Below, piece after piece: positions 1 to 7,188 of a DNA stretch of 30,757 nucleotides. The position numbers and the translations under genes were made by a program. The DNA is from a virus, in the UHGV virus genome UHGV-0360189; one strand, 5' to 3'. Every line of letters begins with the position of its first letter. Positions within the stretch are counted from its first letter, which is position 1. The notes beneath the pieces were generated by a model. It did no database searches. It saw only the letters and a program-made list of their open reading frames with translations, and was not told the origin of the DNA.

Positions 1-75
1 TCCGGAACGCTATCTGCATTATGTACTTGATGTCATCGCCGACTGGCCTGTGAACCGGGTGGGTGCTCTGCTCCC

Positions 76-546
76 GTGGCGGGTTACTCTGCCTGCCTGA
101 CCAGCTTCACTTCGTCAATACGGTTCTCACTGCACGCTTACCATCAGCAAAACGCTATTCACGCAGTACAGCAAATCCTTCCAGACCCAACCAAACCAAT
201 CGTAGTAACCATTCAGGAACGCAACCGCAGCTTAGACCAAAACAGGAAGCTATGGGCCTGCTTAGGTGACGTCTCTCGTCAGGTTGAATGGCATGGTCGC
301 TGGCTGGATGCAGAAAGCTGGAAGTGTGTGTTTACCGCAGCATTAAAGCAGCAGGATGTTGTTCCTAACCTTGCCGGGAATGGCTTTGTGGTAATAGGCC
401 AGTCAACCAGCAGGATGCGTGTAGGCGAATTTGCGGAGCTATTAGAGCTTATACAGGCATTCGGTACAGAGCGTGGCGTTAAGTGGTCAGACGAAGCGAG
501 ACTGGCTCTGGAGTGGAAAGCGAGATGGGGAGATCGGGCTGCATGA
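76..546 (+). CDS. ninB: NinB (Orf-family recombination mediator); 5' end atypical
   Basis: ORF track 76..546; from about residue 22 (HQQNAIHAVQQILPDPTKPIVVTIQERNRSLDQNRKLW...) the translation matches lambda NinB as I remember it. The N-terminal 21 residues differ and the only in-frame start is GTG at 76 with no obvious SD. Stop TGA 544-546 overlaps the next ATG. Confidence 0.8.
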   Translation: MAGYSACLTSFTSSIRFSLHAYHQQNAIHAVQQILPDPTKPIVVTIQERNRSLDQNRKLWACLGDVSRQVEWHGRWLDAESWKCVFTAALKQQDVVPNLAGNGFVVIGQSTSRMRVGEFAELLELIQAFGTERGVKWSDEARLALEWKARWGDRAA

Positions 547-1070
547 CTATCAAATCAAATACGCCAGCACACGACAAGGACTGCTGGCAAACGCCGCTTT
601 GGCTTTTTGATGCACTGGATATTGAGTTTGGATTCTGGCTGGATTCGGCAGCGAGCGACAAAAATGCTCTGTGTGCTCACTGGCTAACTGAGGCCGACGA
701 CGCGCTCAATTCTGAGTGGGTAAGCCACGGTGCAATCTGGAATAACCCACCGTACAGCAATATCAGGCCGTGGGTGGAAAAAGCCGCTGAGCAGTGCATA
801 CAACAGCGACAGACGGTAGTTATGCTTGTGCCAGAGGATATGTCAGTCGGATGGTTCAGCAAGGCTCTGGAGAGTGTCGACGAAGTTCGCATTATCACTG
901 ATGGACGGATTAATTTTATCGAACCATCGACAGGGCTGGAGAAGAAGGGAAACAGCAAAGGCTCCATGCTGCTGATTTGGCGACCGTTCATCAGTCCTCG
1001 ACGGATGTTTACTACCGTATCCAAAGCGGCATTGATGGCGATCGGGCAGGGCGTCAGGAGGGCGGCATGA
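543..1070 (+). CDS. DNA N6-adenine methyltransferase (phage Dam-like orphan MTase)
   Basis: ORF track 483..1070; likely start ATG 543 ([26 protein letters not shown]...) overlapping the ninB stop as ATGA. Contains the NPPY catalytic motif ([10 protein letters not shown]) typical of N6-adenine MTases. Occupies the position of ninC/ninD in lambda. Confidence 0.75.
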
Positions 1071-1249
1071 GGCGACAGCGACGAAGTTTCACCGACATCA
1101 TCTGCGAAAACTGCAAATACCTTCCAACGAAACGCTCCAGAAATAAACGCAAGCCAATCCCAAAAGAATCTGACGTAAAAACCTTCAATTACACAGCTCA
1201 CCTGTGGGATATCCGGTGGCTTAGAGAACGTGCGAGGAAAACAAGGTGA
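1067..1249 (+). CDS. ninE: NinE
   Basis: ATG 1067 preceded by AGGAGG (1056-1061); translation [60 protein letters not shown] matches lambda NinE. Start overlaps the MTase stop (ATGA). Confidence 0.85.
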
Positions 1250-1416
1250 TTGACCAAAATCGAAGTTACGAACAAGGAAGTGTCGAGCGAGCTTTAACGT
1301 GCGCTAACTGCGGTCAGAAGCTGCATGTGCTGGAAGTTCACGTGTGTGAGCACTGCTGCGCAGAACTGATGAGCGATCCGAATAGCTCGATGCACGAGGA
1401 AGAAGACGATGGCTAA
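1246..1416 (+). CDS. ninF: NinF (small Cys-rich protein)
   Basis: Not in the ORF track with this start; GTG 1246 overlaps the ninE stop (GTGA). My own translation gives [56 protein letters not shown], ending TAA 1414-1416, matching lambda NinF as remembered. Confidence 0.75.
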
Positions 1417-2020
1417 ACCAGCGCGAAGACGATGTAAAAACGATGAATGTCGGGAATGGTTTCACCCTGCATTCGCCAATCAGTGGTGGTGCTCTCCAGA
1501 GTGTGGAACCAAGATAGCACTCGAACGACGAAGCAAAGAACGCGAAAAAGCGGAAAAGGCAGCAGAGAAGAAACGACGACGAGAGGAGCAGAAACAGAAA
1601 GATAAACTTAAGATTCGAAAACTCGCCTTAAAGCCCCGCAGTTACTGGATTAAACAAGCCCAACAAGCCGTAAACGCCTTCATCAGAGAAAGAGACCGCG
1701 ACTTACCATGTATCTCGTGCGGAACGCTCACGTCTGCTCAGTGGGATGCCGGGCATTACCGGACAACTGCTGCGGCGCCTCAACTCCGATTTGATGAACG
1801 CAATATTCACAAGCAATGCGTGGTGTGCAACCAACATAAAAGCGGAAATCTCGTTCCGTATCGCGTCGAACTGATTAACCGCATCGGGCAGGAAGCAGTA
1901 GACGAAATCGAATCAAACCATAACCGCCATCGCTGGACTGTCGAAGAGTGCAGGACCATCAAGGCGGAGTATCAACAGAAACTTAAAAAACTGCGAAACA
2001 GCAGAAGTGAGGCTGCATGA
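1409..2020 (+). CDS. ninG: NinG (Rap-like recombination/structure-specific endonuclease)
   Basis: ORF track 1409..2020, 203 aa, [33 protein letters not shown]... matches lambda NinG; Cys-rich N-terminus. Confidence 0.9.
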
Positions 2021-2682
2021 ATATCTACGAAAGAATTGATGGCAGCAAATACCGAAATATTTGGGTAGTTGGCGATCTGCACGGATGCTACACGAACCTG
2101 ATGAACAAACTGGATACGATTGGATTCGACAACAAAAAAGACCTGCTTATCTCGGTGGGCGATTTGGTTGATCGTGGTGCAGAGAACGTTAAATGCCTGG
2201 AATTAATCACATTCCCCTGGTTCAGAGCTGTACGTGGAAACCATGAGCACATGATGATTGATGGCTTATCAGAGCGTGGAAACGTCAATCACTGGCTGCT
2301 TAATGGCGGTGTCTGGTTCTTTAATCTCGATTACGACAAAGAAATTCTGGCTAAAGCTCTTGCCCATAAAGCAGAAGAACTTCCGTTAATCATCGAACTG
2401 GTGAGCAAAGGTAAAAAATATGTCATCTGCCACGCCGATTATCCTTGTGACGAATACGAATTTGGAAAGCCAGTTGATCATCAGCAGGTAATCTGGAACC
2501 GCGAACGAATCAGCAACTCACAAGACGGGATCGTGAAAGAAATTAAAGGCGCGGACACGTTTATCTTTGGTCATACGCCAGCAGTGAAACCACTTAAATT
2601 TGCCAACCAAATGTATATCGATACCGGCGCAGTGTTCTGCGGAAACCTCACATTGATTCAGGTACAGGGAGAAGGCGCATGA
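2017..2682 (+). CDS. ninI: NinI serine/threonine protein phosphatase (lambda PPase, ORF221)
   Basis: ORF track 2017..2682, 221 aa; metallophosphatase motifs GDLHG, GDLVDRG, GNHE visible; start overlaps the ninG stop (ATGA). Confidence 0.9.
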
Positions 2683-3302
2683 GACTCGAAAGCGTAGCTA
2701 AATTTCATTCGCCAAAAAGCCCGATGATGAGCGACTCACCACGGGCCACGGCTTCTGACTCTCTTTCCGGTACTGATGTGATGGCTGCTATGGGGATGGT
2801 GCAATCACAAGCCGGATTCGGAATGGCTGCATTCTGCGGTAAGTATGAACTCAGCCAGAACGACAAACAAAAGGCTATCAACTATCTGATGCAATTTGCA
2901 CACAAGGTATCGGGGAAATACCGTGGTGTGGCAAAGCTTGAAGGAAATACTAAGGCAAAGGTACTGCAAGTGCTCGCAACATTCGCTTATGCGGATTATT
3001 GCCGTAGTGCCGCGACGCCGGGCGCAAGATGCAGAGATTGCCACGGTACAGGCCGTGCGGTTGATATAGCCAAAACAGAGCAGTGGGGGAGAGTTGTTGA
3101 GAAAGAGTGCGGAAGATGCAAAGGTGTCGGCTATTCAAGAATGCCAGCAAGCGCCGCATATCGCGCTGTAACGATGCTAATCCCAAACCTTACTCAACCC
3201 ACCTGGTCACGCACTGTTAAGCCGCTGTATGACGCTCTGGTGGTGCAATGCCACAAAGAAGAGTCAATCGCAGACAACATTTTGAATGCGGTCACACGTT
3301 AG
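2679..3302 (+). CDS. Q: Late gene antiterminator Q
   Basis: ORF track 2679..3302, 207 aa, [27 protein letters not shown]... essentially lambda Q including the Cys-rich zinc-binding region (CRDCHGTG...CGRCKG). ATGA overlap with ninI. Confidence 0.92.
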
Positions 3303-3344: not shown

Positions 3345-3373
3345 TTGACTTTTTGAATAAAGTTGGGTAAATT
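3345..3373 (+). promoter_or_regulatory. Late promoter pR' with overlapping Q-utilisation (qut) region
   Basis: TTGACT at 3345-3350, 17-bp spacer, TAAATT at 3368-3373; the sequence TTGACTTTTTGAATAAAGTTGGGTAAATTTGAC matches the lambda pR' region immediately downstream of Q. Confidence 0.75.
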
Positions 3374-3970: not shown

Positions 3971-4294
3971 ATGAAGATGCCAGAAAAACATGACCTGTTA
4001 GCCGCCATTCTCGCGGCAAAGGAACAAGGCATCGGGGCAATCCTTGCGTTTGCAATGGCGTACCTTCGCGGCAGATATAATGGCGGTGCGTTTACAAAAA
4101 CAGTAATCGACGCAACGATGTGCGCCATTATCGCCTGGTTCATTCGTGACCTTCTCGACTTCGCCGGACTAAGTAGCAATCTCGCTTATATAACGAGCGT
4201 GTTCATCGGCTACATCGGTACTGACTCGATTGGTTCGCTTATCAAACGCTTCGCTGCTAAAAAAGCCGGAGTAGAAGATGGTGGAAATCAATAA
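3971..4294 (+). CDS. S: Holin S (S107 antiholin / S105 holin, dual start)
   Basis: ORF track 3971..4294, 107 aa, [34 protein letters not shown]... matches lambda S; Met1-Lys2-Met3 dual-start motif and three hydrophobic segments. Confidence 0.92.
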
Positions 4295-4754
4295 TCAACG
4301 TAAGGCGTTCCTCGATATGCTGGCGTGGTCAGAGGGAACTGATAACGGACGGCAGAAAACCAGAAATCATGGTTATGACGTCATTGTAGGCGGAGAGCTA
4401 TTCACTGATTACTCCGATCACCCTCGCAAACTTGTCACGCTAAACCCCAAACTCAAATCAACAGCAGCCGGACGTTACCAGCTTCTTTCACGTTGGTGGG
4501 ATGCCTACCGCAAGCAACTTGGCCTGAAAGACTTCTCTCCCAAAAGCCAGGACGCAGTGGCATTGCAGCAGATTAAAGAGCGTGGCGCTTTACCGATGAT
4601 TGATCGCGGTGATATTCGTCAGGCTATCGACCGTTGCAGCAATATCTGGGCTTCACTGCCGGGCGCTGGTTATGGTCAGTTCGAGCATAAGGCTGACAGC
4701 CTGATTGCAAAATTCAAAGAAGCGGGCGGAACGGTCAGAGAGATTGAGGTATGA
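4278..4754 (+). CDS. R: Endolysin R (lytic transglycosylase)
   Basis: ORF track 4278..4754, 158 aa, [39 protein letters not shown]... matches lambda R; overlaps the S 3' end by 17 nt. Confidence 0.92.
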
Positions 4755-5410: not shown

Positions 5411-5908
5411 ATGAAATCATTAACCCTCTTCAATCAACCAATTCGTATCGGTGAAGATGGCATGATCTGCCTCACTGATATGTGGAAAGCCAGTGGTAAA
5501 AGTGAATCTGAATCGCCTTACCACTACCTGCGAAACAAGCAGACCAAAGAGTTCTTAGCCGAGCTGGAGAAAAACCACGAATCTGTGGTTTTTACTGAGC
5601 GCGGTGTACACGGTGGAACATATGGCGGGAAGTTTGTTGCTTACGATTATGCGGCTTGGTTAAACCCCGGGTTCAAGTACGCGGCCTATAAAGTCCTCGA
5701 TGACTACTTCACCGGAGAACTTCAGCATCGCAACAGCTTAAGTGCGCAGCTCAACATGAAATGTCATGAGTTTGACCAGAAGAAAGACATGGCGAGCTTC
5801 TGCGGACAAGGGCTGGCAGCATGGCGCTATACGAAGCCAGTGTTGGTCGCTGAGATTAACTCCCTGGCTAACCAGCTGCAGATTACGATCCCCGGGCTTC
5901 CGGGATGA
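5411..5908 (+). CDS. KilA-N-like domain protein (accessory, function unknown)
   Basis: ORF track 5411..5908, 165 aa. The N-terminal region (IRIGEDGMICLTDMWKASGKSESESPYHYLRNKQTKEFLAELEK) resembles the KilA-N/APSES-type DNA-binding domain as I recall it; not verified by profile search. Sits where lambda has bor. Confidence 0.45.
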   Translation: MKSLTLFNQPIRIGEDGMICLTDMWKASGKSESESPYHYLRNKQTKEFLAELEKNHESVVFTERGVHGGTYGGKFVAYDYAAWLNPGFKYAAYKVLDDYFTGELQHRNSLSAQLNMKCHEFDQKKDMASFCGQGLAAWRYTKPVLVAEINSLANQLQITIPGLPG

Positions 5909-6762: not shown

Positions 6763-7188
6763 TTAGTGCGGAAATATTTGTGTAGTGTTCTGAATGTTCT
6801 CAGTAAAGAGTAATGAATTATCAAAGGTATAGTAATACCTTTTGTTTTCGTGGATATTTGTAATCCATCTGAAAACCCCTGCTGTAGCAAGATTTTTCCT
6901 GTATTCGTAAAATGATAACTCTCCTGATTTGAATCCTTTTAAGGTGGCTTCTATAAGGCATTTATTTTTTGAAAATCTTACATTTACAACCTTACCCTGT
7001 CCTTTTATTAAAACCGTATTATCGTTTTCAAGAACAAGATGAATATTCTCTGTGGCTAAATAGTAAATGTAATGTGAGACATTGTGACGTTTTAGTTCAG
7101 AATAAAACCAGTGATAGTTTAAATTATTTCGCACTTTATCGAATATTTGTTTAAAAATGGCAACCTGAGCCATTGTAGTACCTTCCAT
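6763..7188 (-). CDS. AT-rich accessory protein, YdfO/YbcV-like (DUF1398-type as I recall), function unknown
   Basis: ORF track 6763..7188 (-), 141 aa. A more likely start is the second ATG (about 7173, [11 protein letters not shown]...) preceded by GGAAGG. The gene is markedly AT-rich by eye compared with the flanking lambda-like genes. Family assignment is from memory of E. coli cryptic-prophage genes next to the nu1 homologue, not from a search. Confidence 0.6.

Follow-up and report, generated by a model that had tools for sequence, protein, structure and literature searches.

A known lambdoid-phage dam gene between ninB and ninE of UHGV-0360189, with a product identical to the reportedly GATC-methylating M.EcoVT2Dam

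The virus genome UHGV-0360189 (here called the window, i.e. the whole analysed stretch of 30,757 nucleotides) carries, between ninB and ninE of its nin region, an open reading frame (ORF) at positions 543-1070 that an earlier note on this DNA had read as an orphan N6-adenine methyltransferase. We conclude, with a probability of about 0.88, that it is a known lambdoid-phage dam gene encoding a minimal S-adenosylmethionine (AdoMet)-dependent DNA N6-adenine methyltransferase of the T1 / HP1 / VT2 Dam family, and that the identical protein M.EcoVT2Dam reportedly converts GATC to Gm6ATC. The reading of the earlier note is borne out by the family matches, the conserved motifs and the lack of a visible endonuclease among the scanned neighbours, as is its description of the ORF (175 amino acids (aa), with an NPPY motif, lying between ninB and ninE), which agrees with the ORF coordinates and with the matches of the flanking genes to PF05772 and PF05322. 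The novelty that it implied did not hold: the gene has already been named (M.EcoVT2Dam), cloned and routinely annotated, and is real but ordinary.

Identity and distribution of the dam gene

The ORF runs from an ATG at 543-545 to a TGA at 1068-1070 (175 codons plus the stop). Its product matched two family hidden Markov models (HMMs) over their full length, namely Pfam PF05869 ('DNA N-6-adenine-methyltransferase (Dam)'; 218.4 bits, gathering score 28.1, E-value 6.4e-65, profile positions 1-167 of 169) and the equivalog model TIGR01712 of NCBIfam ('phage N-6-adenine-methyltransferase'; 265.9 bits, cut-off 97.05, E-value 9.7e-80, profile positions 1-165 of 165), as expected of a member of the phage Dam family to which the T1, HP1 and VT2 enzymes belong. 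It also matched PHROG 111 (phrog_111, 'DNA methyltransferase'). The protein was tested for membership of the classical Dam family (class alpha, PF02086) as well, and showed neither a match to the MethyltransfD12/Dam HMM nor the inserted target-recognition domain of that family. With E. coli Dam, T4 Dam and DpnM, all of class alpha, it shares the reported GATC target, the N6-methyladenine (m6A) chemistry and a Rossmann-fold AdoMet methyltransferase core; it resembles Dam in its action, yet stands outside the classical Dam family.

The closest known counterpart is M.EcoVT2Dam, the dam product of the Shiga toxin (Stx) 2 phage VT2-Sakai (BAA94133.1). The two proteins are identical at 175 of 175 positions, both genes measure 528 bp, and both are found between ninB and ninE with overlaps of 4 nt. 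The surroundings differ, in that the window has a lambda/434-like backbone and not that of an Stx phage, and in that its ninB is cut by an element of the IS66 family of insertion sequences (IS). The annotation of the VT2-Sakai dam gene mentions similarity to Orf13 of phage HP1 and to M.T1 of phage T1.

The gene is common. A tblastn search of a phage collection with the protein returned 1908 records overall, 201 of them at an identity of at least 99% and including Stx phages, and the gene was found at a nucleotide identity of at least 95% in 1566 of 5426 complete E. coli genomes (~29%). Among the matches listed in E. coli genomes it is annotated as 'phage N-6-adenine-methyltransferase', with NinB and NinE on either side, and the same slot between ninB and ninE is occupied by dam in the phages 434, Sf6 and HK544 and in many Stx phages. 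The nin region of the window (142-2700) is collinear with that of phage 434, to which it aligns in a single piece at 97%, and is also close to those of Sf6, Sf101, HK544, IME10 and mEp213. A gene that is annotated in hundreds of phages and in ~29% of the complete E. coli genomes can hardly be called new.

Motifs and fold of the protein

The earlier note had proposed a motif-based classification of the enzyme, and would have counted the absence of a conserved AdoMet-binding motif against its reading. The classification that we ran gave an order resembling that of class gamma: a W-TP element (motif-X-like) is followed by LDxAA (motif-I-like) and then by NPPY (motif IV). In an alignment of 33 homologues (60-84% identity) the residues T17, P18, L33, D34, A36 and N68-P69-P70-Y71 were invariant, and W15 and Q16 were conserved in at least 90%. 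As judged from this alignment and from that with T1 Dam, an AdoMet-binding motif thus appears to be conserved (T17, P18, L33, D34 and A36), as is NPPY.

Phage T1 Dam (M.EcoT1Dam, 237 aa), together with HP1 Dam a founding member of the same PF05869 / TIGR01712 family, is 33% identical to the window protein over 158 aa (E 2e-26), with W-TP, LDxAAS and NPPYS aligned; WSTP takes the place of WQTP, LDAAAS that of LDSAAS, and NPPY is found in both. T1 Dam, which is described as Gm6ATC-modifying, differs in having its own N-terminal extension of ~45 aa and its own insertion of ~14 aa after the fourth strand, and comes from a virulent phage and not from a nin operon.

LDxAA and NPPY are separated by 29 residues, and there is therefore no space for an inserted target-recognition domain. 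We infer from this arrangement that the protein is a minimal class I (Rossmann-fold) methyltransferase core, with motifs X, I and IV in the order of class gamma and no separate target-recognition domain. WQTP would correspond to motif X by analogy with the gamma-class enzymes. An AlphaFold2 model built from the alignment reached a predicted template modelling score of 0.78 and a mean predicted local distance difference test score (pLDDT) of 74.8; because model confidence is low around LDSAAS (pLDDT <50 for residues 33-41), this loop is presented here as a putative cofactor-binding element. Single-protein and profile searches detected no PDB entry for the protein by sequence. The gamma-class enzymes proper (M.TaqI, CamA, M.BseCI and the type I HsdM subunits) and PCIF1 are much larger, with 380-610 aa and either large target-recognition domains or partner specificity subunits. 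Compared with these, to which it is 7-13% identical, the window protein amounts to little more than a catalytic core.

GATC as the reported target

The product of the VT-2 dam gene is said to have been found to methylate GATC by Radlinska and Bujnicki in 2001. The orphan methyltransferase of the E. coli prophage VT2-Sa is called M.EcoVT2Dam in a study that lists its homologues with a predicted specificity for GATC (PMC6602927), and the laboratory that cloned VT-2 dam writes that a Dam-like conversion of GATC to Gm6ATC 'has been shown' for VT-2 (PMC7139368). Both papers credit the activity to the cloning paper of Radlinska and Bujnicki (2001; PMID 11720311). The latter laboratory also states that among these phage enzymes only those of T2 and T4 are homologues of the cellular Dam (PMC7139368). 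For the protein of the window, the GATC specificity is therefore a reported one, carried over by 100% identity to M.EcoVT2Dam and resting on these secondary citations. The earlier note had given the target as unknown; the identity to the VT2-Sakai enzyme supplies GATC instead. Support at the level of the family may be seen in the relatedness to T1 Dam and in the cloned enzyme M.Btr190III, which is 35% identical to M.EcoT1Dam and methylates GATC with some off-target activity (PMC4996451).

That a protein of 175 aa has no recognisable target-recognition domain, and that its Rossmann core alone aligns to known methyltransferases, has to be weighed as an argument for relaxed specificity, i.e. for a promiscuous adenine methyltransferase that merely prefers GATC and provides broad protection against restriction in place of Dam mimicry. 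Prophage-borne non-specific adenine methyltransferases do exist. M.EcoGII and Hia5 are, like the window protein, orphan and prophage-borne m6A methyltransferases that are thought to protect exported DNA; by description they are set apart from it, since nearly every adenine is a substrate for either of them and the protein identical to that of the window is reportedly GATC-specific. We considered a kinship with these two enzymes and rejected it: M.EcoGII is assigned to class beta, and hence to a different family (PMC7544214), and the Hia5 paper names neither the T1, HP1 and VT2 enzymes nor Pfam. No sequence link to Hia5 was seen, although no direct comparison was made. Further points against relaxed specificity are that GATC is the site given for the identical protein (PMC6602927, PMC7139368) and that no extra motif was detected in a strain with two copies of M.EcoVT2Dam (PMC6602927), although expression in that lysogen is uncertain. 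In the published methylomes consulted, the activity of this enzyme is masked by host Dam. We consider relaxed specificity quite improbable and retain GATC as the reported target.

Position in the nin operon and absence of a restriction partner

The coordinates of dam, of its motifs and of the adjoining features are collected in Table 1.

Table 1. Features at and around the dam gene of UHGV-0360189
Feature	Position	Strand	Evidence
dam, N6-adenine DNA methyltransferase, 175 aa, protein identical to M.EcoVT2Dam	543..1070 (including stop)	+	ORF, PF05869, TIGR01712, phrog_111, 175/175 identity
WQTP (aa 15-18), N-terminal W-TP element, motif-X-like, where helix 19-29 begins	585..596	+	conservation, T1 Dam alignment
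LDSAAS, aa 33-38, motif-I-like putative AdoMet-binding loop	639..656	+	conservation, T1 Dam alignment
NPPY (aa 68-71), motif IV (catalytic) of amino-methyltransferases	744..755	+	conservation, T1 Dam alignment
ninB (orf) remnant without codons 1-12 and start codon	142..546	+	PF05772 profile 10-131, 3.9e-52; lambda alignment
ninE, 60 aa, overlaps dam	1067..1249	+	PF05322 1.9e-42, full length
ninB stop / dam start: GGGGAG at 527-532 (Shine-Dalgarno-like run), spacer of 10 nt, ATGA overlap at 543-546	527..546	+	read from sequence
dam stop / ninE start: AGGAGG at 1056-1061, 5-nt spacer, ATGA overlap at 1067-1070	1056..1070	+	read from sequence
Right end of IS66-family insertion sequence: transposase C-terminus, stop at 98-100, then terminal inverted repeat ending ...GCACGCTTAC	1..141	+	plasmid matches, translation

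In lambda, Nin290 (ninC) and Nin57 (ninD) are found between Nin146 (ninB) and Nin60 (ninE), so that dam indeed occupies, as the earlier note had stated, the place of ninC and ninD: a conserved ninB-dam-ninE cassette replaces the ninC-ninD pair of lambda. The overlaps that it described as ATGA at both ends of dam are equally present, with the TGA of the upstream ORF at 544-546 and the ATG of ninE at 1067-1069. Its further claim that dam is coupled to ninB and ninE has to be qualified. The overlaps are real, but all six junctions from ninB to Q (142-3302, + strand) overlap (ATGA at 543, 1067, 2017 and 2679, GTGA at 1246 and an 8-nt overlap at 1409-1416), and the coupling is for that reason not special to dam; tight packing with many ATGA motifs is a trait of the nin regions of all lambdoid phages (PMC8022706). 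Moreover, the ninB of the window has lost its start to the IS66-family insertion.

The neighbours of dam are ninB, ninE, ninF, ninG, ninI and Q, beyond which lie genes for lysis and packaging, and the same cassette is present in VT2-Sakai, which makes the gene an orphan. We found by Pfam no restriction-endonuclease-like domain among the ORFs for ninB, ninE, ninF, ninG, ninI, Q, holin S, Rz, KilA-N, DUF1398, Nu1 and the tail fibre, in agreement with the claim that no restriction endonuclease partner lies nearby; the ORF at 4278-4754 had no Pfam match. A cognate endonuclease beside dam, as in a type II restriction-modification system, was seen neither in the scanned flanks nor in the annotated homologous loci. 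That dam could be the methyltransferase half of such a system with an overlooked endonuclease is also contradicted by the occurrence of the cassette without an endonuclease partner in VT2-Sakai, in lambda-like prophages and in phage 434 (some relatives carry unrelated HNH homing-type genes only) and by the absence of a family match for the antisense ORF at 677-1201. In the presence of nothing but nin genes and Q at its flanks, we regard this possibility as negligible, and dam as an orphan gene.

Several other features of the region were noted. The antisense ORF just mentioned (- strand, 174 aa), which extends over the 3' portion of dam and the greater part of ninE, matched nothing in Pfam; it is probably spurious. 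The ninG gene is directly followed by a gene for a NinI-type phosphatase (1409-2682, + strand), with no ninH between them, unlike in lambda. Accessory genes are found between the lysis cassette and Nu1, namely KilA-N/ORF11CD3 (5411-5908, + strand) and DUF1398 (6763-7188, - strand), both of them also present in related E. coli prophages. Elsewhere the window aligns with structural genes as annotated in a lambda-like prophage, and no transfer RNA genes were found in it.

GATC is under-represented across the window, with 70 sites against 119 +/- 9.7 expected from dinucleotide-preserving shuffles, every one of which had more. We take this scarcity to be a property of the lambda-type backbone and not evidence about dam. 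One GATC (532-535) falls within the spacer that separates the Shine-Dalgarno-like run from the start codon of dam.

An IS66-family insertion upstream of dam

The first 145 nucleotides of the window are 99.3% identical to the 3' ends of IS66-family elements, on 344 plasmids. Frame 2 encodes the C-terminus of a transposase, PERYLHYVLDVIADWPVNRVGALLPWRVTLPA, which is terminated by the stop at 98-100, and an annotated copy of the IS66 transposase ends at the corresponding position. All matches of phages and of E. coli to the left part of the window begin at 142, and in the alignment with the 5' part of lambda ninB the break falls immediately before CAT (His13), because of which codons 1-12, the start codon included, are missing from the gene. 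The ninB of the window is a 5'-truncated remnant. The junction between the IS66-family element and ninB (141/142) was found neither in the 5426 complete E. coli genomes nor in any GTDB representative genome; with 0 occurrences among the former, the event is strain-specific and probably recent.

A copy of the same IS66-family element on the Citrobacter freundii plasmid NZ_CP133848.1 (locus L005, 530-3796) appears to split a methyltransferase gene of the classical Dam family, as short coding sequences annotated as 'DNA adenine methylase' and 'Dam family' flank it. This is a coincidence that is unrelated to the window.

The insertion may lower the expression of dam in this prophage, or alter it by read-through from the co-oriented transposase. 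No sigma-70-like site was found between the start of the window and dam; the only such site on the forward strand (TTGACT-17-TAAATT, 3345-3373) is situated just downstream of Q and is, from this position, taken to be the late promoter pR'. It is conceivable, then, that dam is an unexpressed passenger here, the nin genes having been severed from pR by the insertion in ninB, possibly together with more decay farther left. The adjacency of the IS end to codon 13 of ninB, the lack of a promoter-like site between the IS end and dam, the modest Shine-Dalgarno-like run with its 10-nt spacer, the overlap of dam with the stop of a ninB remnant that has no start, and the strain-specific and probably recent nature of the junction are all compatible with such silence. 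Yet the dam ORF is intact and 100% identical to a functional allele, read-through from the co-oriented transposase or N-antiterminated transcription could reach it, and the late region downstream looks complete. We judge silence of the gene to be unlikely, if well worth bearing in mind; in any case it bears on activity in this strain and not on the identity of the gene, which remains a lambdoid-phage dam. Quite improbable as well, in our view, is that GATC specificity is not strict at the levels reached upon phage induction, with protection of the progeny DNA against several restriction specificities, or that read-through from the IS66-family element makes the enzyme constitutively active in the lysogen.

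Proposed role of the phage Dam enzyme

The dam gene of the window is intact, and its product is identical to an enzyme reported to be active. Host Dam methylates the virion DNA of lambda and of P22 incompletely, probably because it cannot keep pace with replication (PMC3299994; PMC8022706). For phage Phi24B, a significant change in expression upon induction was seen for the coding sequence CM2, a putative dam of 528 bp whose listed identity to the VT2-Sakai protein is 100% (PMC3342100). We propose that dam would act as a non-essential delayed-early gene, transcribed with the N-antiterminated early-right (pR) operon and translated in line with its overlapping neighbours. Its product would methylate those GATC sites on the fast-replicating phage DNA that host Dam leaves unmethylated, and the progeny DNA would become fully Dam-modified, regardless of the dam status of the host, and so be protected from restriction enzymes that cut only unmethylated GATC.

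It has to be considered that the enzyme might serve chiefly in the lysogen, where it would regulate epigenetically or back up host Dam, helping to maintain the prophage and not to modify the progeny DNA. The dam gene of Phi24B was among those that a screen of lysogen cultures for expressed genes recovered, and the authors of that screen suggested that it may supplement host Dam, itself required for stable lysogeny of 933W (PMC3342100). Spontaneously induced cells are, however, present in lysogen cultures, the gene is part of the repressed early-right operon and has no promoter-like site of its own, and host Dam covers the same site, so that no new epigenetic information would be gained in a dam+ host. 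On balance such a role seems improbable, and we favour modification of the progeny DNA; the function of phage Dam enzymes is still described as poorly understood (PMC7556043).

The significance of the gene at 543-1070 is mainly one of correct annotation, as it is a common and already named accessory gene of lambdoid phages. The window gives no special handle on the questions that concern the family as a whole, which are how an enzyme of 175 aa reads GATC without a target-recognition domain, and what a phage gains from duplicating the Dam activity of its host.
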